Part shown: positions 15,536-37,465 of the stretch, piece after piece
Layout: each line of letters starts with the position of its first letter
Position numbering within the stretch: the first letter of the stretch is position 1
Source: a virus
Length of the DNA stretch: 40,745 nucleotides
Virus genome (UHGV): UHGV-0435673
Direction: 5' to 3' (one strand)
The notes under the pieces: model-generated
Database searches by the model: none
Told to the model about the DNA's origin: nothing
What the model saw: only the letters and a program-made list of their open reading frames with translations
Position numbers and translations under genes: made by a program

Positions 15536-15817
15536 AGTGAACTCCTTGATTTTTCTATTGCCCTTTCTGAAATAGAAAAGGCCGGGAGCTAGAAACCGTC
15601 AAGGAACGGCGGGCATATTCCCCCGAAGGGTATTCTATTAGCCCACTCCCGGCCTGAATAGCCGAATAAATACACCACTTCCAAGGTTTTCTATAGACCT
15701 TGACAGGGCATAAAAAGAGCCACTTTCAGGCAATGGCGACCTTCCTTGAGGAGTTTCTACGCTCCGTGAGGAAACCAAAGCATGAAAGCGGCTATGTTGT
15801 CAAGATAGGACTACAGG

Positions 15818-16465
15818 TTATCTGTTTTCTTTTTGATATGTTATTCCATTTGGTTGTATTTTTATTCCAATGAATTTTAGCTCTTCAGGAGTATACTCTG
15901 GTATCCTTATTTTTATTGATTTTGCTTTTCCTGATTTAATGTCATCCAATTTTTCAGTTTTTTCTTTCCTTGAATCAAGATAAACCTTATTTTTTTCTAA
16001 ATCATTCCAGTTTGGAAATTCTTTTGCATATTCTACAGTTATTGTATTATCAACCATAGTTGCTGAATAAAGGTTAACAAATTCTATTGTTACTTCTGAT
16101 CCTGTAGAGTATTTTCTAATATTCTCACAGGATACAGTAAATAATCCTCCACGACAAGAAATGATAGAAAATTTGCTTTCACTAGGATTCAATAAAGCTT
16201 GTTCTGGTAACTTAAAATCTAGTGTTTTAATACTTCTATCATAATAGTTATTCATAATTTTTTGCAACTCAAGAAAATCTTTTATACTTTTAATTTCTAC
16301 TTTTAATGATTCAACTTCTTTTTTCAATAATTCATTTTCTTTTTTGAGTTGTTCAACTTCAGTTCCAATTTCTCCAGCCTTATTTATATTGTCTAGTAGT
16401 TCAAAGGAAAAAGCATTTCCACACATGTATATGCAAAAAGCAAAAGTAAGAAGTACTTTTTTCAT
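15818..16465 (-). CDS. Secreted coiled-coil protein, AT-rich moron gene
   Basis: Sec signal peptide MKKVLLTFAFCIYMCGNAFS, heptad-rich segment (EVEQLKKENELLKKEVESLKVEIKSIK). AT-rich codon usage. 1 nt after the upstream lipoprotein gene. Confidence 0.5.
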   Translation of the reverse strand: MKKVLLTFAFCIYMCGNAFSFELLDNINKAGEIGTEVEQLKKENELLKKEVESLKVEIKSIKDFLELQKIMNNYYDRSIKTLDFKLPEQALLNPSESKFSIISCRGGLFTVSCENIRKYSTGSEVTIEFVNLYSATMVDNTITVEYAKEFPNWNDLEKNKVYLDSRKEKTEKLDDIKSGKAKSIKIRIPEYTPEELKFIGIKIQPNGITYQKENR

Positions 16466-16466
16466 G

Positions 16467-17171
16467 TTATTTGCTCACTTTTCGATATACTTTTTCAGAT
16501 TCTGAGGCAACATGATGGTAATCTGTTTCTTTAAATCCATCCTGTACCTTTGCAGAGTTTGAAACACGCTCTGCATATCTTTCCATTGCTTCTTTGGTAG
16601 CTTTTCCTATTGCTTCGGACAGTACTTGTGCACCATTACCACAGGCTCCTCCTGCTTCGCCTTCAGCTGTCTTTGTGGCACTTGCGATACTGTTTATCAA
16701 AATTTTGTTGTTAACGTCACGGACAACAAAGTCGAATGCGATATCTACATCGGCTCTTGAAGAAGCAGACCAAAATCCTGGGATAAAAACTATTCTTGGT
16801 TCAAAAGAAGTAAGTCTAACGAGGATGTATCCCTTTGCACCTTTTTCTATCATTTCATCATGTGTGGGAATAGATTCTTGTTCTATGACGTGTTCAAACA
16901 TAGCTTCAGTTGTTAGTCTGATTGAAGAGTCAAATGCACTATTTGTACCTATAGAAAATTTATGGGCACCACATTGATAAGATGAAGGTTTTACATCTTT
17001 CACAATAGTAGAAGCACTTTCATCTATAATCAATATAATAGTAGCTGGTATTTTACCATCATAAGAAGAATAAATATTTGTTGCTTGTGATGATGGTATT
17101 GCTGTTTTATAGGAACATCCAGCCATAGTAAAAGTAAGCATACCCAACAAAAGAAGCAAAATCCGTTTCAT
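16467..17171 (-). CDS. Lipoprotein, AT-rich moron gene
   Basis: Lipobox LTFTMAG-C after MKRILLLLLGM. Strong SD GGAGAGGGAGGGGAA upstream of the internal ATG. AT-rich. Confidence 0.55.
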   Translation of the reverse strand: MKRILLLLLGMLTFTMAGCSYKTAIPSSQATNIYSSYDGKIPATIILIIDESASTIVKDVKPSSYQCGAHKFSIGTNSAFDSSIRLTTEAMFEHVIEQESIPTHDEMIEKGAKGYILVRLTSFEPRIVFIPGFWSASSRADVDIAFDFVVRDVNNKILINSIASATKTAEGEAGGACGNGAQVLSEAIGKATKEAMERYAERVSNSAKVQDGFKETDYHHVASESEKVYRKVSK

Positions 17172-17258
17172 CATTTCCCCTCCCTCTCCATACGGAGAAT
17201 GTCTTTCTCCAGCCGTTACCAGAAAACCCATATGGACTCAATCAAAAAGGAGGTATCC

Positions 17259-23933: not shown

Positions 23934-23969
23934 GTTCTCCTCCAGAAAAAGGAAAAGCCCCTTTCGGGG

Positions 23970-24167
23970 CTACTTCGGTTCGTGCTTGGCTTTGGCGTTC
24001 CAAGCGTCTATGGCTTCCTTGAGTGTATCGAAAAGCAGAGTTTTTGCAGGACATCCAACTCTATTACAAGAGACGCGCCACACTTCGGCCATGCCGACAA
24101 ACGTTTCTATCAATACGCACTCTGTGTATGCGGAATGCCCGCAGAGAGGGCACGGTTTCAAGGCCAT
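23970..24167 (-). CDS. Lar-family restriction alleviation protein (Zn-ribbon)
   Basis: MALKPCPLCGHSAY...VSCNRVGCPAKT...EAIDAWNAKA matches the Lar family pattern (CPxCG ... CxxC ... AWN). Confidence 0.55.
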   Translation of the reverse strand: MALKPCPLCGHSAYTECVLIETFVGMAEVWRVSCNRVGCPAKTLLFDTLKEAIDAWNAKAKHEPK

Positions 24168-26780: not shown

Positions 26781-26860
26781 GTTTCCCCGCGTGCTTCGTA
26801 TGCGCGGCCCACGGTTTGGGGTATGAAAAGCCCCGCCGGGGGAGGGCGGGGCGTGGGGTG

Positions 26861-27953: not shown

Positions 27954-28007
27954 AAAGGTTCTCCTTTAGGTAAAAGAAAGGCCCGGTGGTGAGCCGGGCC
28001 GGGGTGG

Positions 28008-28940: not shown

Positions 28941-29740
28941 TCGGGCAGGTCAAGATCGATGATTTCAGAAACGTATCCGGGCCAGAGGCCGGACTTGGTG
29001 CAGGATGCGTATGTGCTGAGTGCGTCCTTGATTTCTTCAAGTCCGACTTGCTGCGCGTCCTCGCTGACGTTGGCGGCGGTGACAAGGTGGGGGGCGGTCT
29101 TCTCGACGGCGACGAGCACGAACACGCTGGAGTCCATGCCCACGGCCCGGAGTGCGCGGCGGTACCATACTGCCTGTCTGTGATATCCCCACTTGAGTAC
29201 AGAGCGGGCCAACCCTTCCGGGCTGGCGTCGTCCGTGCTTTTAAGGTCAACGGCGACGAGCCCGAACCCCGGCACGGTGGCAAGCATGTCCAGCCGGGCC
29301 TTGCATGGAATTTCGAGCCCGTCCACGGTTTCGCTCCAGTATATAGAGACTTCCGTCCGCTTATCCTTTGCAGTCATCAACTTGCCGATCAAAGGATGAA
29401 TCAGAACGGATTCCGCCATTGCCGAAGCTGCATTGTGTATTTTGGCTGGCACCAGTTCCAGCCCTGCGGCCTTGGCGGTCGCGGTTTCTTCCTTGCCCGC
29501 CTTGGTTGAGCCGTTGAATTGCTTTACGGCGTACCGTTTGCCGAATTCTCCGGGTTCGAGTGCAAGGCAGTGGAAAACAGAACCGAAAAGGAATGCTTCC
29601 GTTTCCTCTTCTGTAACGCCGTCCATCCAAGCTTTGAATTTGGCGGGGGCCTGCCTGAGCTTGTCCATACCGCTTTTGCTTATGGCGCGGGTGGCGTGGT
29701 AGACTTCTGGCGGTTCATTGAGCCGCATTTCCGGTTTCAT
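28910..29740 (-). CDS. PD-(D/E)XK recombination exonuclease (YqaJ/lambda-Exo-like)
   Basis: Motifs FGSVFH...VAVDLKST...WGYHRQAVWY match PD-(D/E)XK. Overlaps recT (RecET-like pair). Confidence 0.6.
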   Translation of the reverse strand: MKPEMRLNEPPEVYHATRAISKSGMDKLRQAPAKFKAWMDGVTEEETEAFLFGSVFHCLALEPGEFGKRYAVKQFNGSTKAGKEETATAKAAGLELVPAKIHNAASAMAESVLIHPLIGKLMTAKDKRTEVSIYWSETVDGLEIPCKARLDMLATVPGFGLVAVDLKSTDDASPEGLARSVLKWGYHRQAVWYRRALRAVGMDSSVFVLVAVEKTAPHLVTAANVSEDAQQVGLEEIKDALSTYASCTKSGLWPGYVSEIIDLDLPEWAYKRRFAA

Positions 29741-29967
29741 CGCATGGCCTCCATCCCGTACAAGATCTGTGGAAGAATGCAGATACCGAGCATGACAGCC
29801 ATAAAGATGATGACCGCAGCAACTCTAGCCCGGTCAACCTTTTTAGGCCGTTCCAAAGATACCTTGGCGTGCTTCATGTAGACGTTGGAAATCATGCCGC
29901 TGCCCTCCGTGCCATGATTTTGAGGTAGTTGGCCTTTGCCAGAAACGACCGTGCGGCGTTCTCGCAC
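29737..29967 (-). CDS. Small membrane protein
   Basis: AAVIIFMAVMLGICILPQIL TM segment. Confidence 0.3.
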   Translation of the reverse strand: MRERRTVVSGKGQLPQNHGTEGSGMISNVYMKHAKVSLERPKKVDRARVAAVIIFMAVMLGICILPQILYGMEAMR

Positions 29968-30098
29968 GCCGTGACCAGCGTCTCGGCGGTGTAGTATTCC
30001 GCGCAGGACGAGCAGATCCAGAAGTCGCGGTGCCTCCTGAGCCTCACGGCCTTGTCGTACTTGAGCTTGCAGTGCGGGCAGAAAATGGTGCCGTTCAT
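29892..30098 (-). CDS. Small Zn-ribbon protein (CPHC...CSSC)
   Basis: Start at the internal MNGTIFCPHCK, coupled to the upstream stop. Confidence 0.3.
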   Translation of the reverse strand: MNGTIFCPHCKLKYDKAVRLRRHRDFWICSSCAEYYTAETLVTACENAARSFLAKANYLKIMARRAAA

Positions 30099-30361
30099 GC
30101 CGCGTTCCTCCTCTTTTCCAACTTGTCCCGATACAGCGCGTACCTGTCGTGAAGTTCTGCGCTTACCCATCCCTCGCAGTGGGTGATCTTCTTCGGGTCG
30201 ATGGCAACCTCGGCATCGGCAAGCATGATGCCGAACCGTTCCTTGATGGCCTTCACCATGTCCGAAGAGATATTGCACAGCTGGTCGCTCTCGAAGTAGC
30301 GGGCGCAGGTTGCGCATACGTGGGGCTCATCTTCCGGTTCATATTCGTAGGGGTTACGCAT
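30095..30361 (-). CDS. Hypothetical 88-aa protein, first gene of the leftward early operon
   Basis: Acidic N-terminus, CATC...C..HC motif. Confidence 0.35.
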   Translation of the reverse strand: MRNPYEYEPEDEPHVCATCARYFESDQLCNISSDMVKAIKERFGIMLADAEVAIDPKKITHCEGWVSAELHDRYALYRDKLEKRRNAA

Positions 30362-30408
30362 GGCTGTATCCTCTTGGTTAAAGTTCGTTCCGGGGTCCCA
30401 GAACCAAT

Positions 30409-30434
30409 GAAAAAGCCCGGCGTAGTTCCGGGCT
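30409..30434 (-). terminator. Minus-strand intrinsic terminator between the PL leader and the first early-left gene
   Basis: + strand AAAAAGCCCGG-cgtagtt-CCGGGCT. The - strand reads stem then UUUUU. Confidence 0.4.
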
Positions 30435-30639
30435 TCGATGATTCAAGGCAAGCACCCGACGGGGCCAATCCCCGCCGGGGCGCGCTCCCATGCGGCACAT
30501 CTCAACGCATGGTTCGGCGCAACGCGCATTGTCGCTGCGCCTCTCATGCGGGGCGGTGAATTGTCAGAAAGTCAACTGACCGCCCGGATGTAGAAATTCG
30601 TATTTCATCGTTTCACGGCCCGATCTTTGTGTCGTAACC

Positions 30640-30900
30640 GTGGGCCCTGTTGGTCGGCTCGGCCCCCGTCGCTTCGGTGCGCTTTGCGCTTCGGCCTTCT
30701 TTTCAGCCGTTTTTCCGTCCCGCCGTCCCTGCGCGGCCTGTCTTCACATCACCAGTCTCACGGGCCTCTTTCGAGCTTTCCGGGCGGCCTCTTGCTCCGC
30801 CCACCGTATCCGCTACGGCCTTCATGCCGCCCAAAACGGCTTCCTTCTCACGGGGCATTCTGGCTACTTTCCGGCTAGGTGCCTGGCGTGTTCGCCTTCC
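30640..30900 (-). other. A-depleted noncoding tract (+ strand lacks A, so the leftward transcript is U-poor). Candidate structured leader or ncRNA.
   Basis: All three + frames are open here only because stop codons need A. No credible protein. Lies between OL/PL and the terminator at 30409-30434. Confidence 0.35.
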
Positions 30901-30914
30901 CCGTTCGTTGTGAA

Positions 30915-30975
30915 GACAATATATACGTATGCGAATTTTACGTCAATAAAAATTTCATATATGTATATATTGAAT
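30915..30975 (-). promoter_or_regulatory. OL/PL-like operator-promoter
   Basis: ATACGTAT (30923-30930) and TATATGTATATA (30958-30969) are identical to motifs at OR. - strand TTGACG-16 nt-ATATAT promoter-like hexamers overlap them. Confidence 0.45.
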
Positions 30976-31022
30976 CAAAAAATACCGCCGACACCACGAA
31001 GGCTCGGCGGTCACGCCCCATA

Positions 31023-31055
31023 GGGCACAAAAAAGCCCCTCACGAGGAGGGGCAA
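31023..31055 (-). terminator. Minus-strand terminator after the AT-rich moron
   Basis: - strand GCCCCTCCTCGTGAGGGGC followed by TTTTTTG. Confidence 0.45.
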
Positions 31056-31067
31056 AGGGAGGCTCCG

Positions 31068-31268
31068 TTAAGGTACTAATGGATTAATATTCATATTAGA
31101 TAGTTCGGTGATATTTTTATTTGTAAAATCAACTTGTTGAATAGGGTTTGTCTTGATGCCCATATTTTTTAAAATTAACATCATTTCATGATGATGTTTC
31201 AATGCTGGATTGTTTTCTATATTTTTAAGTAATAATGACATTTTATAATGCTTTTTGTCGATTTTCAT
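31068..31268 (-). CDS. 66-aa AT-rich small protein, partner of the Clp-fold protease
   Basis: Start codon overlaps the protease stop (ATG at 31268). K/N/I-rich. Confidence 0.4.
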   Translation of the reverse strand: MKIDKKHYKMSLLLKNIENNPALKHHHEMMLILKNMGIKTNPIQQVDFTNKNITELSNMNINPLVP

Positions 31269-32149
31269 TAGAGTAAACTCCCATTAGTCATTTCTCTAGT
31301 ATGTAAAAATAATTGATAGTTATATTTTGATGAAAAGTCAATCGCAAGTCTATTATATTCTTTTACTAATCTATATAATTTAAGGTCGTCTGAATAATCT
31401 TCAATCTTTAGCTTTAGATCGTCTTGAAGAGTTTTTATTCCTATATGTCTTCCATGTATATGCCAATGAGCATTATCACCTAATATTCTAGCTATTTCTT
31501 CAGCTCTATGCTCTTTTTCTTTAAGTGTGACTTCGGTATCTGTTTTACTATGAATTGTCCAGTCTTTAAATTTATAATTTACGAGCCATTTTTTTAATAG
31601 CGTTACGGTTATATTTCGTGCTTGTTGATAAAAATTTAAATCAGCAAGATTTAAATTTAAAGCCATTTGTAACTCTACTGGACTTATGGGGTTATTAGAA
31701 TCTTTATTTAATGATTTTTTACATATTGCATCAAATTGATCTAAATACCCTTGTGCAGGAACCCATTGTCCATTAGACAATACTTGAGGATCTATAGGGC
31801 CTAATGATGAGGCAAAATTCATATATATTTTGTCGCCAGACATGCAAAGAATAGTACCCGCTGAGTATGCATATTCATGTACAATGAAATATACTTCATC
31901 ATAGAACCTACGCATCACCTCAACCATTATCTCAGCCATTTCTACACTGCCGCCATTTGTTGTTAAATTGACAGCAAGAGATTTATGTTTTTTCTTTCTA
32001 GCTAATTTTTCAAATTCAGTGGTAAAGAATGTTCTGTGGTTAGGGTGAATACCACCATAAAACAAAAAAACATCAGACTGGAGATGTTCTTCTAGTTTAA
32101 TACAATAATTATTCAAAGCTTCATATGCAACTTTATCAACTGGACCCAT
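31268..32149 (-). CDS. Clp-fold serine protease of the S49/SDH (SppA-like) type with a 110-aa C-terminal extension
   Basis: LFYGGIHPN...LTTNGGSVEMAEIMVEVM and HEYAYSAGTILCMSGDKIYMNFASSLGPIDPQ fit the ClpP/SppA fold. Very AT-rich versus the flanks. Confidence 0.6.
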   Translation of the reverse strand: MGPVDKVAYEALNNYCIKLEEHLQSDVFLFYGGIHPNHRTFFTTEFEKLARKKKHKSLAVNLTTNGGSVEMAEIMVEVMRRFYDEVYFIVHEYAYSAGTILCMSGDKIYMNFASSLGPIDPQVLSNGQWVPAQGYLDQFDAICKKSLNKDSNNPISPVELQMALNLNLADLNFYQQARNITVTLLKKWLVNYKFKDWTIHSKTDTEVTLKEKEHRAEEIARILGDNAHWHIHGRHIGIKTLQDDLKLKIEDYSDDLKLYRLVKEYNRLAIDFSSKYNYQLFLHTREMTNGSLL

Positions 32150-32221
32150 TGCATCTCCCTCCTCCCCGCTCCGGCGGGGATTTTCATTTACAGCTCACGT
32201 CACGCCACGCCCACACGGTAA

Positions 32222-32875
32222 CTAAACAAGCTGCCAAGTCCAAACGACTTTCCCAATAATGATGTTGTCGTATCCCTCATTAGAAACTTTCTGTGGTTTC
32301 CATCTGGGATTGTCTGAATGGAGGATAATATTACCATCCTCATCTTGCATAACTCTTTTAACAACCAAACCAAATGGGGGACGCTGTACAAGGTAAATGC
32401 CGCCGTCCTCTAGTTCGTCGTCAAGAGGGATAACACCTACATAAGCCCCTTTTAAGATTGTAGGTTCCATACTGTCGCCAGTAACTTTAACGGCACGAAC
32501 ATCGGGAAGATTATACTGAGGGAGAACAGGGATCATATTTTCTGGAGCGGTAGAAAAAAATTCAGCTGGTAGTCCGGCACCTGCTTCTTCAAAGACAGGT
32601 ATCTCATGTAAGTTGTCCCCTGTTACGTTTTCAGTAGGAGAGTGACAGGCCATACGACGCATTACAGGATACCTTTCTTCATCCGGGAAAATCACCAATG
32701 CCCCCATAGCTGACAATATTTTTGATACCTTATCGAGCCCAAGTTGCTGGGCTTTGACCCCTAAAGCACGCGACAAGTTCGCCTGACTGACGCCACATTT
32801 TTGAGCAAATGCAGCTATCTGGCGTTGATCTGAAATGTCCCTCAACCGAGCCATGAGTTTTTCTTCTAGTTCCAT
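32222..32875 (-). CDS. CI-like repressor (HTH plus S24 LexA-like autopeptidase)
   Basis: HTH IAAFAQKCGVSQANLSRALG. C-terminal VTGDSMEPTILKGAYVGV...GGIYLV...VKRV with Ser/Lys dyad context. Alternative start at 32938. Confidence 0.7.
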   Translation of the reverse strand: MELEEKLMARLRDISDQRQIAAFAQKCGVSQANLSRALGVKAQQLGLDKVSKILSAMGALVIFPDEERYPVMRRMACHSPTENVTGDNLHEIPVFEEAGAGLPAEFFSTAPENMIPVLPQYNLPDVRAVKVTGDSMEPTILKGAYVGVIPLDDELEDGGIYLVQRPPFGLVVKRVMQDEDGNIILHSDNPRWKPQKVSNEGYDNIIIGKVVWTWQLV

Positions 32876-32967
32876 ACGTTCCTGCATACGATACTGAGGA
32901 CAAAAAGTCATCTTTCGTAAATGTAATTTTACTTGCATATAGATACGTATATGTATATACTTACGCC
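32876..32967. promoter_or_regulatory. OR-like divergent operator-promoter between cI and cro
   Basis: ATACGTAT (32943-32950), TATATGTATATA (32948-32959), variant ATACGATA (32886-32893). TTGCAT-17 nt-TATACT hexamers end 5 nt before the cro ATG. Confidence 0.45.
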
Positions 32968-33207
32968 ATGAACACCGAACTTTTCAGAACTCACTTGCGC
33001 GAAAGAATGCAGATTACCCGGGCAACCCAGATAGAAGTCGAAGAAAAGACTGGAGTTTCTCAGGCGTCGATTTCGCGTTTTTTGTCAGGGGCAAGGATTA
33101 ATTCTGACAACTTGTTCAAGTTATGGGAGTTCATTTACGAGGGGCAATTTCCAGCCGCTCCCAGCACTCCCACCGAACCCGAAGAGGTGAGTCATGGACT
33201 GGCCTGA
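32968..33207 (+). CDS. Cro-like HTH regulator
   Basis: Divergent from cI. HTH ATQIEVEEKTGVSQASISRFLSG. Confidence 0.55.
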   Translation: MNTELFRTHLRERMQITRATQIEVEEKTGVSQASISRFLSGARINSDNLFKLWEFIYEGQFPAAPSTPTEPEEVSHGLA

Positions 33208-33465
33208 TATCGCCGCGAAGGTGGCCTTCTTCGCCCTCATGGGGTTTATTTTCTGGCTTGATCGTGACTAACCCCGCCGCGCACCGCCGGGCCACAGCCT
33301 CGGGCGTCGGGTACTCCGCGACGCGGTACGCCCTCCAGCGTATCCGGGGATCCCTATGGATCAGGATGCGGACACGCCAGACGGCACGGTGGCGAGTGAT
33401 GAGCAGGTGAACGAAAGATTCCATGCCCCCATTAGAGCATGGGTATACACCAAGGAAAATGATCG

Positions 33466-33909
33466 ATGAATACCCAAGATTATAACACGTTGACGGAAGT
33501 TATCGAGGCCATGATCGATGAAGGCAAAAAGCCGATCAAGGCCATCGCCGCCGAGATCGGCAAGCCGTATCCGACTCTCAAGCGTGAGCTGAACCCGGCT
33601 GACGACGGCGCGAAGCTCGGAGCGGACGCACTACTCGGCATTATGGCCTCCTGTGGCTCAATCGCGCCCTTGGAATGGCTGGCGGACAGGCTCGGTTATG
33701 TCGTGAAGCCCAAGGAATGGGCAGAGCCAGACAAGAAAACATGGCCAGAAGAATGCGTTGATGACGCCGTGTGTGGCGGAAAGATGAATATGCTTATGCG
33801 GGAAAAAGCGCATCCGTCCATCGTCTCCAAGGCTGCGGAAGAACGGAAGGACGAGATAGACCAGACGAACACTCGGTATAGGCGAGATTACAACCAAGCG
33901 AGGCAGTAA
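33466..33909 (+). CDS. Putative early regulatory protein (CII position)
   Basis: 147 aa. RBS AAGGAAAA. Second gene of the rightward operon. Confidence 0.3.
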   Translation: MNTQDYNTLTEVIEAMIDEGKKPIKAIAAEIGKPYPTLKRELNPADDGAKLGADALLGIMASCGSIAPLEWLADRLGYVVKPKEWAEPDKKTWPEECVDDAVCGGKMNMLMREKAHPSIVSKAAEERKDEIDQTNTRYRRDYNQARQ

Positions 33910-33910
33910 A

Positions 33911-34309
33911 ATGCCGATCCTGATTTGCCAACAGTGCGGTCGGATGTTTGAAGTGAAACGGTACTTTGCCGAAACCGCAAAGTACTGCTCAAAAGAGTGC
34001 AAGGATAAGGCCGCACAGACGCGAGGGCCTCAAAAGTGCAAGTGCTGCGGAAAAGAATTTCCAGCGAAAGGGAATGCAGCTTTTTGCGACAAAGTTTGTG
34101 GGTATGCTTTCAGAGCCGGGGTGAGCCGCGAAGAATGGCTTGAAGCTCATCCACAGAGCAATCAGTCAACACTTTTCAAGCGTAAGTGCCATGACTGCGG
34201 GAAGCCCACAAACAATTACAGGTGTTCAGCTTGTTGGGAAAAGCTCCGCAGCGAATCTGAAACGGGTGGTATCCCGGAATACCAGGTTATGGGGCAGGCA
34301 TGGGTGTAG
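33911..34309 (+). CDS. Multi-CxxC Zn-finger protein
   Basis: CQQCG...CSKEC...CKCCG...CDKVCG...CHDCG...CSAC, six CxxC-like pairs. Confidence 0.35.
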   Translation: MPILICQQCGRMFEVKRYFAETAKYCSKECKDKAAQTRGPQKCKCCGKEFPAKGNAAFCDKVCGYAFRAGVSREEWLEAHPQSNQSTLFKRKCHDCGKPTNNYRCSACWEKLRSESETGGIPEYQVMGQAWV

Positions 34310-34500
34310 GCCCGTGCCGCTTGGGTCGGCTTCACCGTGATGGGCGGCGCGTCCTGTGTTTTGCGGACTGGTCGAAAGAGTACGGAGTCCCGGCGTGGAC
34401 GTCCCGAAACGGGTTCGTCAAAGACGTGAACTTCTGCCGCCTGTACTGCGAGAAGAGGCCGGATATGTTTGAAGTAGAACTTAAAGGTTCTAAGGCATAG
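34300..34500 (+). CDS. Hypothetical 66-aa protein
   Basis: Small coupled ORF. A weak hairpin follows (34517-34541). Confidence 0.25.
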   Translation: MGVGPCRLGRLHRDGRRVLCFADWSKEYGVPAWTSRNGFVKDVNFCRLYCEKRPDMFEVELKGSKA

Positions 34501-36353: not shown

Positions 36354-36565
36354 TGAGGAAAAAGAAGGAACGGGTCAAAAAACTTGAAGGGTGGGGAGAG
36401 ATATGTGCCTTGGTGGGGTGGTCGCGCCCGACGCTTATCAAGCACGGCTTCCCCGTGTATCAGATTTCGAGGGGAAGCCGCGTTTTTGCGTATGCTGAGG
36501 AACTCAGAAAGCACAAGATCAGTCTTGAGCAGAGGACGATCTGCGATCAAGCTCAGTCTGCATGA
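36353..36565 (+). CDS. Small HTH DNA-binding protein (AlpA/MerR-like)
   Basis: ICALVGWSRPTLIKHGFPVYQISRGSRVFAYAEEL. ATG overlaps the upstream stop. Confidence 0.45.
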   Translation: MRKKKERVKKLEGWGEICALVGWSRPTLIKHGFPVYQISRGSRVFAYAEELRKHKISLEQRTICDQAQSA

Positions 36566-36731
36566 GTTGGATGATCCATTTTGCGATCGTCTTTCCTTCT
36601 CTGGTAGCTTCCTCTTTAGCAGGTATCCATAAACTGTCGGGGATACGGATCGTTCTACTCGGAGCGGCATTTTCCTTTCGCGGCCTTCCTGCTCCCTCGC
36701 GGCGGCCGCCTCGCTTTTTCTTTTCTTCCAT
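36519..36731 (-). CDS. RHH-like small DNA-binding protein with an AT-hook-like N-terminus
   Basis: Strong SD GGGGAGGAG. GGRREGAGRPRK then TIRIPDSLWIPAKEEATREGKTIAKWIIQL (strand-helix-helix pattern). Confidence 0.35.
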   Translation of the reverse strand: MEEKKKRGGRREGAGRPRKENAAPSRTIRIPDSLWIPAKEEATREGKTIAKWIIQLMQTELDRRSSSAQD

Positions 36732-36765
36732 CTCCTCCCCTCTCTTTATTCGTCTTCCTCTTCAT

Positions 36766-36945
36766 CTACCCTAAAAATTCTTCGTCAAGAATTTCAGCGA
36801 TGAGTCCGGTTTCCTGCGTTCTGTTTCCGTTTTCATCGTGCAAGGTAACAGTTGCTTCCATACCCTCTTCAAGATGCTGTTCGGTATCGATGGTTCCCGT
36901 GGTGCCAGTCGTGAGCAGGATAGAATAGCGGGTCATGTCTTACTC
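36766..36945 (-). CDS. 59-aa acidic protein between the GNAT and RHH genes
   Basis: SD AAGGAG 6 nt upstream. MTRYSILLTTGTTGTIDTEQHLEEG... Below the ORF-track size cutoff. Confidence 0.3.
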
Positions 36946-36955
36946 CTTTGTCTGT

Positions 36956-37312
36956 TTAGTGTTCCATTACTACGATTTCGCCAGCTTCGATCACATCAAA
37001 ACCTTCGCTTTCATAAAAGGCCACCAGCCGATCCATATCTGTATCGGCATCCAGAGGTTCAGCTACCAACCGAATTGCCATTCCGGGGTAAGTAGCGCGA
37101 GCGTGAGAGACGGCTTCACGAAGAAGGCGGCGGGCAATGCCGTTTCCGCGATTCTCTGAGGGAACAAAAAGCTTTTCGATGAGCACATATTGCTCTCCGT
37201 CCACTTCATAACCATCTTCATCAAAATCGATTTCTGTTTCGATACGATATGCACAGAAAGCCTTGTCGTTTTCAAGAGTTGTTTCGTTGTTGGCTGTGGT
37301 GATGGTTATCAT
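36956..37312 (-). CDS. Small GNAT-family N-acetyltransferase
   Basis: SD AAGGAGAG. Motif-A-like VPSENRGNGIARRLLREAVSHA. 118 aa. Confidence 0.55.
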   Translation of the reverse strand: MITITTANNETTLENDKAFCAYRIETEIDFDEDGYEVDGEQYVLIEKLFVPSENRGNGIARRLLREAVSHARATYPGMAIRLVAEPLDADTDMDRLVAFYESEGFDVIEAGEIVVMEH

Positions 37313-37465
37313 GAGAACTCTCCTTTTGTCCCTTTCGTTGAAAACACTATGCGCCTTTATTTTGAAAAATGCAATACTTTTTTCAAATATTTTTTTCATC
37401 CCTTTTCAAATCGTTGCAACGCCTTTCAAATCCTTTCATTCTTTACATTTTTTCTCTGGATGTGA

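Follow-up and report, generated by a model that had tools for sequence, protein, structure and literature searches.

A conserved structured leader RNA at the start of the early-left transcript of predicted Bilophila wadsworthia phages, a candidate cis-acting antitermination element

To our knowledge, RNA-only phage control of transcription elongation is known from one family, the put RNAs of HK022. The RNAs of this family bind the RNA polymerase beta' zinc-binding domain and suppress termination without protein factors. EAR is a cis-acting antitermination RNA found inside an operon, and GOLLD and ROOL are ornate large prophage RNAs that often lie beside tRNA genes. A put RNA is ~70 nucleotides (nt) long and forms two stem-loops in a V shape with a 5' triplex, and putL of HK022, which works without protein, has its first nucleotide at +2/+3 of the PL transcript and is made up of two irregular stems (PMC9378689). 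Conjugative plasmids of the pLS20 type combine a large antitermination RNA, conAn2, with the ConAn1 protein (PMC8191782). Here we analyzed the virus genome UHGV-0435673 (the phage window, ~40.7 kb or 40,745 nt in its whole length), which is a complete lambdoid temperate phage genome, and describe M1, an element of ~175 nt at the head of its early-left (PL) transcript. M1 is very probably a real, conserved, structured non-coding leader RNA, and apparently represents a structured RNA family not described before, judging from sequence. As to its function, we tentatively favor, short of calling it probable, a cis-acting leader RNA that would make transcription resistant to terminators and to Rho, put-like in function. 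The features on which this argument rests are as follows.

30917-30972: OL operators, an inverted repeat overlapping PL, with arms at 30917-30939 and 30950-30972
30918-30946, minus strand: PL promoter, with the -35 element TTGACG at 30946-30941, a 17-nt spacer and the -10 element TATATT at 30923-30918
30911, minus strand: inferred transcription start, the A of UUCAC and the seventh base after the -10 element
30739-30911, minus strand: M1, the constant element, a conserved structured leader RNA (126 bits with covariance model R1)

The layout of the phage window is that of the lambda N/nut system, running from cI through a moron to OL/PL, a leader and an early-left operon with exo, recT and internal terminators; unlike lambda, it has no Arg-rich N-like gene and no boxA/boxB-like sequence common to the PL leader and the PR operon. 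The phages that carry M1 are like HK022 in being lambdoid, in lacking N and in having terminators downstream. Like putL, M1 lies at the very start of the PL transcript, as placed here, and is built of two irregular stem domains. Unlike the ~70-nt put, M1 is 150-180 nt long in relatives, its domain II is a branched, exchangeable cassette, it has no -10-like pause element because U is nearly absent, and its predicted host belongs to the Desulfovibrionaceae and is not an enterobacterium. One relative, L077, retains only the first ~65 nt of M1 (domain I) before its first gene, which is a put-like size. By description, conAn2 and M1 are alike in being large structured RNAs that start long mobile-element operons with internal terminators (PMC8191782). 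The partner protein of conAn2 is encoded just upstream, whereas nothing is encoded between PL and M1, and the conAn2 host is Gram-positive, unlike that of M1. Like GOLLD and ROOL, M1 adjoins tRNA genes in many of the phages that carry it, and it differs from them in being much smaller and in having no Rfam match.

M1 was found by aligning protein-anchored relatives together with all leaders carrying the 5' motif, within a comparison set of ~100 related B. wadsworthia phage and prophage sequences (labeled with L-numbers, e.g. L010), and the covariance model R1 was built from it. Run with filters off on the phage window, R1 returned a single match of 126 bits, with the runner-up at 9.7 bits, and 73 relatives each gave one M1 match, scoring 75-154 bits. 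More distant copies were sought with a loose gapped pattern, which yielded more than 120 loci, and R1 found none in the 80 unrelated viral loci searched. The PL promoter itself, strong and repressor-controlled, matches the sigma-70 consensus at 10 of 12 positions in a promoter scan. The arms of the OL repeat are 83% complementary, and its half-sites TATATGTATATA and ATAKATACGTAT occur again at 32937-32963, in the divergent region between cI and cro, so that the OL/PL assignment, made in an earlier note on this DNA from motifs at 30920-30970, stands. The 91 loci with enough upstream sequence for comparison reduce to 46 distinct sequences and 19 promoter/operator clusters, which by their sequences correspond to different immunity specificities. 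An equivalent promoter, TTGACN followed after 16-18 nt by a -10 element, is present in all 46 distinct upstream sequences, and across these variants the -10 ends 3 nt (rarely 5) ahead of a conserved UUCAC. M1 begins at the inferred start in all 91 loci and is always the first element after the promoter, behind each of the 19 promoter/operator versions, and the break in homology between variable promoters and constant RNA coincides with this same position. The first 23 nt of M1 carry at most two substitutions even in loci that were found by the 3' motif or by the upstream terminator motif, and the constancy of this segment is therefore not only a matter of ascertainment. Comparison with Rfam 15 gave nothing relevant at E values up to 10 over 29500-33500, and nothing at the gathering score over M1 in the phage window and six relatives. 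No earlier description of M1 was found in the literature searched.

Single-sequence folds of nine M1 variants share one plan, in which a purine linker connects two irregular stem domains.

30850-30904, minus strand: domain I of M1, nested helices with the terminal hairpin H1
30904-30899 with 30855-30850, minus strand: outer helix of domain I, ACGGGG/CCCCGU
30896-30894 with 30864-30862, minus strand: domain I helix GGC/GCC (GCY in relatives)
30886-30871, minus strand: hairpin H1, of two sequence types among relatives
30840-30849, minus strand: purine linker between the domains, GAGAAGGAAG in the phage window and GGAGGAAG in most relatives
30752-30839, minus strand: domain II of M1, the closing helix P2 around an exchangeable interior
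30839-30833 with 30758-30752, minus strand: P2, CCGUUUU paired with AGACUGG
30818-30804 and 30775-30766, minus strand: GNRA-type hairpins of domain II, the second being CUC-GAAA-GAG

Covariation supports this plan. Over 60 distinct M1 sequences, 94.7% of the alignment cells in the proposed helices are paired, as compared to at most 49% when the partners are slid by 1-3 columns, and the covariation score was reached by 0 of 500 shuffles, with compensatory changes in P2 and H1. RNAalifold retrieves the M1 helices. Helices 2-4 of domain I are 93-99% paired over the 60 sequences, and where the 3' partner CCCC is missing the two extra G residues of the 5' strand become variable. The 5' variants CGCGCGGGG and CGCCCGGGG lengthen the pairing with their own 3' strands, and likewise, where the AA of CGAACGGGG is changed to CG or CC, the pairing with the 3' strand of the same phage grows longer. 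P2 is 96.9% paired, and three of its six pairs show compensatory changes (CG/AU/GU, CG/GC and AU/UA/CG). Its versions are GCCCCA/UGGGGU, CCGGUUU/AGACUGG, GCCAGCC/GGCUGGC and CACCAGCC/GGCUGGUG, with single-step changes within types from A-U to C-G (L080) and from G-C to G-U (L015, L079), and a private G-to-U change at 30836 weakens the helix in the phage window. The interior that P2 encloses exists in four differing sequence versions, each with complementary ends, and the linker core RRGGAA is kept in alignments A2 and A3. The interior hairpin loops are GCGA/GCAA and GAAA, and these GNRA loops suggest, in the modeled fold, some tertiary packing of M1. G-U pairs are frequent and would read C-A on the other strand, so the folded strand is the leftward transcript. 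The idea of a structured regulatory RNA on the minus strand, put forward in the earlier note, is upheld in this sense by the covariation in M1. A further closing helix joining the two ends of M1, UUCAC/GUGAA, was considered and dropped, because transcription from the inferred start leaves out the UUC, and tRNA-linked variants lack the 3' strand.

M1 lies mostly within a tract that had drawn attention through its lack of A on the plus strand, and the depletion is as extreme as it first appeared. The 261 nt at 30640-30900 contain 19 A, 101 C, 68 G and 73 T, and this A content of 7.3% is the lowest among all 261-nt stretches of the 40,745 nt (mean 23.6%, standard deviation 4.5). The longest A-free run of the phage window (67 nt, 30638-30704) overlaps it almost wholly. 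The leftward transcript of the tract is accordingly U-poor and purine-rich, as had been supposed, with 7% U and 67% purine. Uniformly low U is a property of these leaders even where they are partly unrelated in sequence: among 69 distinct related leaders, the initial 150 nt contain 6.9% U on average (range 4.7-12%). Since A is scarce, all three plus-strand frames are open across the tract, as had also been noticed, and this is seen in open reading frames (ORFs) at 30627-30878, 30640-31023 and 30650-30913.

The leader was nevertheless judged non-coding at the outset, and the comparison agrees. Between M1 pairs that are at least 90% identical, 25 of 26 distinct indels are not multiples of three. 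The minus-strand frames of the tract give short peptides rich in R, K, G, A and E, and relatives are read in different frames, with no frame or start codon in common; Pfam and PHROGs gave no match in the tract. The Arg- and Lys-rich look of these frames arises because codons without U give such a composition by default. One Arg-rich frame (...KRLKRRPKRKAHRS...) lacks a start codon in the phage window, where, as in L036 and L063, indels of 1 or 2 nt cut it short; only in L051, by an 8-nt deletion, is it joined to a start. A hidden ORF or N-like peptide was therefore ruled out by the frame-breaking indels, the absent starts and the lack of family matches. The failure to see an N-type antiterminator in the initial inspection was confirmed by a scan for Arg-rich windows in all ORFs of 40-200 amino acids (aa), which gave only out-of-frame artifacts and one RHH protein elsewhere. 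A 14-codon ORF (MKYEFLHPGGQLTF) at 30563-30607 on the minus strand lies in the leader's only AU-rich patch; it has no Shine-Dalgarno sequence, its frame is broken by 1- or 2-nt indels in L036, L063 and L071, and it is probably not translated.

What follows M1 is less constant. The phage window and many relatives share the order M1, M2, S3, terminator and 88-aa gene.

30640-30738, minus strand: M2, optional cargo and the second module poor in U; hairpins 30709-30692 and 30689-30679
30440-30642, minus strand: S3, a hairpin cassette, with hairpins at 30642-30614, 30585-30551, 30541-30516, 30511-30489 and 30479-30455

M2 is present in only part of the relatives, and elsewhere its place is taken by a version with two different hairpins, by tRNA genes or by a gene; it has at least two versions, with different hairpins at equal positions. 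The S3 hairpins are conserved (RNAalifold, nine variants), with compensatory differences in L010 and L028 as judged by eye, and the cassette sits at other operon positions in some relatives. The leader as a whole folds with z = -3.4. In ~20 loci tRNA genes begin 10-25 nt past M1, and in loci of the L080 type M1 is followed at once by a gene that has a ribosome-binding site of its own. From these sequence comparisons, M2 and S3 are exchangeable cargo outside the core element. The leader had been pictured as a single unit of ~550 nt, possibly a discrete non-coding RNA; this picture gives way to that of a constant M1 with exchangeable modules, because the modules of the leader assort independently.

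Several of the cargo RNAs are unusual in their own right. Six relatives (L033, L040, L041, L045, L075 and L093) carry a tRNA-Ser-like gene ~170-275 nt after the start of M1, with an anticodon loop three bases short and the ARAGORN label 'tRNA-???', adjoining a normal tRNA-Ser(UGA) and tRNA-Gln(UUG). The arrays of L054 and L091 also include Met, Leu(UAA) and an odd 101-nt 'Phe(AAA)'. Another five (L046, L066, L079, L099 and L100) have an element of ~125 nt, located ~150-280 nt after the start of M1, with a tRNA-like acceptor stem and T arm (ACCCCUAG...GGUUCGACUCCUCCUAGGGGU) and a long insert, which was not called as a tRNA and has no match to an Rfam family. In L010, a relative with a 98% identical exonuclease, positions 700-1300 hold an S3-type cassette, then a tRNA-like T-arm sequence and then an AT-rich insertion, an arrangement that could have arisen by integration into the leader region; the 10.8 kb examined of this relative contain no M1.

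The case for an antitermination function comes from the operon that M1 heads.

30406-30435, minus strand: intrinsic leader terminator, between the leader and the genes
30404-30387, minus strand: post-terminator hairpin
30375-30369, minus strand: ribosome-binding site AAGAGGA, 8 nt upstream of the first gene
30361-30359, minus strand: start codon of the first early-left gene
30361-30095, minus strand: first early-left gene, encoding an 88-aa protein without a known family
27980-28000, minus strand: intra-operon terminator after recT
26830-26852 and 23956-23971, minus strand: further intra-operon terminators

The early-left genes encode, in order, the 88-aa protein, a zinc-ribbon protein, an exonuclease VIII-like protein and RecT, and the first genes of the operon differ between relatives. 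The intrinsic terminator that had been noticed between the leader and these genes is a strong one, formed by AAGCCCGG-AACUACG-CCGGGCUU and then UUUCAUU (9-bp stem, 7-nt loop, -20.1 kcal/mol, z = -3.5), and most relatives keep it immediately before the 88-aa gene. With it, the operon has four co-oriented intergenic terminators, and the three intra-operon hairpins are kept in L010. The stretch left untranslated behind PL is 553 nt in the phage window and holds tRNA arrays in relatives. Long untranslated RNA is exposed to Rho. No ORF was found between PL and the terminator at 30435-30406, and therefore no protein from the transcript upstream of the terminator can act on it. Genes behind a leader terminator, four co-oriented terminators, the lack of an N-like protein and of a nut-like repeat common to the leader and the PR operon, and the put-like size of the element in L077 speak for M1 as a cis-acting antitermination RNA, for which HK022 putL is the functional precedent. 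Under this model, M1 would fold during synthesis into two G-C-paired stem domains with a purine linker and A-rich loops, GNRA tetraloops among them, and would act in cis on the RNA polymerase that produced it. Elongation would then continue past the leader terminator and the three others of the operon, and the long untranslated cargo would be shielded from Rho. The scarcity of U, together with 67% purine, may force a single G-C-only fold with obligatorily unpaired A, may remove U-tracts, and may leave few pyrimidine sites for Rho and few AU-rich sites for RNase E.

Several points weigh against this model. The +1 of PL, the A of UUCAC at 30911, is a position deduced with the usual 7-nt rule from the geometry of the promoter. 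Many of the compensatory cells in M1 stem from a few swapped cassettes and not from many independent events. M1 alone is no more stable than shuffled sequence (z = -0.9), since any G-rich sequence folds well; thermodynamic stability was dropped as evidence for M1 as not significant, and the case for its structure therefore rests on covariation. In some relatives no terminator is predicted within 2 kb of M1, or a gene comes immediately behind it, so that terminator read-through cannot be the whole of its role. While put and nut sites come in L/R pairs, M1 occurs once per phage and has no putR counterpart, and no second copy was found by R1 after PR or ahead of the late genes. R1 found nothing in the HK022 PL/putL region searched, and the local alignment score of 20 between putL and the leader is at chance level, being reached by 86 of 500 shuffles. 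A 9-mer, GACGAACGG, is common to putL (nt 4-12) and M1 (nt 3-11) at a similar distance from the start, but is only a weakened lead because its AA varies in M1. Homology of M1 to put is thus unsupported by model or alignment, and membership of the leader in the put family of HK022, which the earlier note had named as a comparison, fails on similarity, on size and on the missing second copy.

A more specific form of the proposal, that M1 is a protein-independent antiterminator which binds RNA polymerase, confers Rho resistance and evolved independently of HK022 put, is doubtful. If true, phages would have two classes of RNA-only processive antiterminator, and the new one, the first from beyond the enterobacteria, would be a portable module at the +1 of PL, behind at least 19 immunity types and ahead of tRNA or gene cargo. 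It would show the RNA-only solution to be more general, in phages of a common human-gut sulfidogen, would supply a compact new RNA acting on a non-enterobacterial RNA polymerase, and would explain how long untranslated cargo such as tRNA arrays is expressed. Whatever its function, M1 is a well-delimited new structured RNA family with ~100 natural variants, for which nature supplies both a minimal form, reduced to domain I, and clear compensatory mutants.

The alternative that survives best, with a real though minority chance of being correct, is that M1 and the U-poor tract form a stabilizing or insulating 5' untranslated region without any contact to RNA polymerase. A compact G-C fold with scarce U would be cut poorly by RNase E and would offer Rho little to load on, and would supply a constant 5' end for whatever cargo recombination puts behind it. 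This agrees with the composition of the leader (8.5 YC dinucleotides per 100 nt vs 12.6-13.1 in the remaining operon, a C/G ratio of 0.68 vs ~1.0, and 7% U), with the placement of M1 before genes and tRNA arrays that have no predicted terminator, and with its presence as a single copy at the 5' end only. A protective 5' hairpin, however, requires neither 150-180 nt nor two conserved domains, and has no need of a near-invariant 23-nt 5' segment across 19 promoter/operator versions. Some 8 nt at the 5' end of M1 are predicted to be unpaired, and unpaired 5' nucleotides are poor for 5'-end protection. Passage of the strong terminator at 30435-30406 would also be left unexplained.

It is unlikely that M1 is instead a nut-like platform for an unrecognized factor that modifies RNA polymerase, be it a host Nus-type complex or a phage protein from another operon. 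The location and operon logic are those that speak for the cis-acting RNA, the single-stranded linker RRGGAA and the invariant 5' segment could, going by sequence, bind a protein, and pLS20 conAn shows that a large leader RNA can require a protein partner (PMC8191782). Against such a factor stand the lack of any Arg-rich or N-like ORF in the phage window or of any ORF ahead of M1 in the transcript, and the lack of a second site in the PR operon, where a search for nut-like repeats (leader vs 32941-34400) gave only chance 7-9-mers in common. The right-arm proteins tested included no recognizable member of a Q-like or other antiterminator family. The interval between cro and cII was considered as a nutR/tR1 region and rejected, as it is coding.

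An RNA acting in trans is quite improbable. It would be the leader itself, M1 released by RNase P, or a species of ~500 nt ending at the terminator, and its target, as a sponge or decoy, would be a CsrA-like RNA-binding protein of the host or a defense system. The leader does end at a terminator, and relatives bearing tRNAs would free M1 ~10-25 nt past its 3' end. In its complex fold with GNRA loops, M1 resembles structured RNAs carried by phages whose function is unknown. However, no variant has a terminator directly behind M1, and a trans-acting RNA would not need strict fixation at the +1 of PL. Like the CsrB/RsmZ sponges, M1 is purine-rich with several GGA triplets, and the GGA motifs had prompted the suggestion of a CsrB-like RNA. 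Unlike in those sponges, GGA and A(N)GGA stand at or below the level expected from composition: the counts of GGA, AGGA and ANGGA are 9, 1 and 3 vs 10.2, 2.7 and 2.9 expected (for GGA, 10.2 by dinucleotide and 11.5 by mononucleotide shuffles), and neither CsrB/Rsm nor any other Rfam family matched. As GGA is not enriched, the CsrB-like reading and identity as a CsrA sponge fail.

A riboswitch-like aptamer that senses a ligand or signal and tunes early-left expression is highly improbable: although M1 stands at the 5' end of an operon and its fold has several helices and conserved junction nucleotides, it has no attached expression platform (the sequence after it varies, and the nearest terminator is ~300 nt off or absent), the interior of domain II is freely exchanged, and no Rfam riboswitch matches. 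The chance of a hidden gene, either an N-like Arg/Lys-rich minus-strand peptide or an open plus-strand frame, is practically negligible, for although scarce A removes all stop codons in six frames and the minus frames read as basic peptides, the indels, missing starts, missing families and default composition described above tell against it.

The wider context of the leader in the phage window is given by the following features.

30977-31053, minus strand: tandem pair of terminators closing the cI-moron transcript, immediately upstream of PL
31068-32149, minus strand: low-GC moron (GC 0.23-0.33) between cI and PL, in the position of lambda rex
32222-32938, minus strand: CI repressor, S24-type
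32968-33207, plus strand: Cro
33466-33909, plus strand: CII-like protein

The tandem terminators consist of a stem at 31053-31035 and of ACCGCCGA...UCGGCGGU with a U run at 31011-30977, and the motif GGTGTCGGCGGT...TTTT is kept upstream of PL in relatives. The moron that they close encodes a ClpP/SDH-like serine protease (293 aa, phrog_11747) and a 66-aa ORF, and is carried by only some relatives. As regards the host, the 5' motif of the leader matches one species-representative genome, through a prophage of Bilophila wadsworthia ATCC 49260 (L030) with an M1 nearly identical to that of the phage window, along with 16 IMG/VR contigs and 74 human-gut metagenome contigs, and the annotated phage collection INPHARED holds nothing similar at blastn sensitivity; the host assigned from these sequences is B. 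wadsworthia, a member of the Desulfovibrionaceae.

The cro-cII interval (33199-33424) encodes a hydrophobic peptide of ~25 aa (MDWPDIAAKVAFFALMGFIFWLDRD), a small membrane peptide whose ORF overlaps the cro stop codon. A tR1-like hairpin at 33233-33245 lies inside this ORF and is therefore probably no terminator. A minus-strand ORF from 33424 to 33131 (core ...VHLLIT..VWRVRIL..YPTPEAVARRCA) is kept in more than 60 relatives with indels in multiples of three; Pfam has no family for the ORFs of this interval.

Two further observations concern regions away from the early-left operon. At 15572-15654 on the minus strand there is a match to the Rfam family sRNA-Xcc1 (RF02221; 66.7 bits vs a gathering score of 53), adjoining a low-GC island at 15818-17231 in the structural/late region. 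A GNAT acetyltransferase-like ORF (36956-37399) and a small RHH-type protein (~36733-36540) with an N-terminus rich in K, R and G lie on the strand opposite to their neighbors, and this region (36540-37399, minus strand) may be a toxin-antitoxin-like moron. The second-longest A-free run of the phage window (36670-36729) arises because this RHH protein, with its K/R/G-rich N-terminus, is encoded there.

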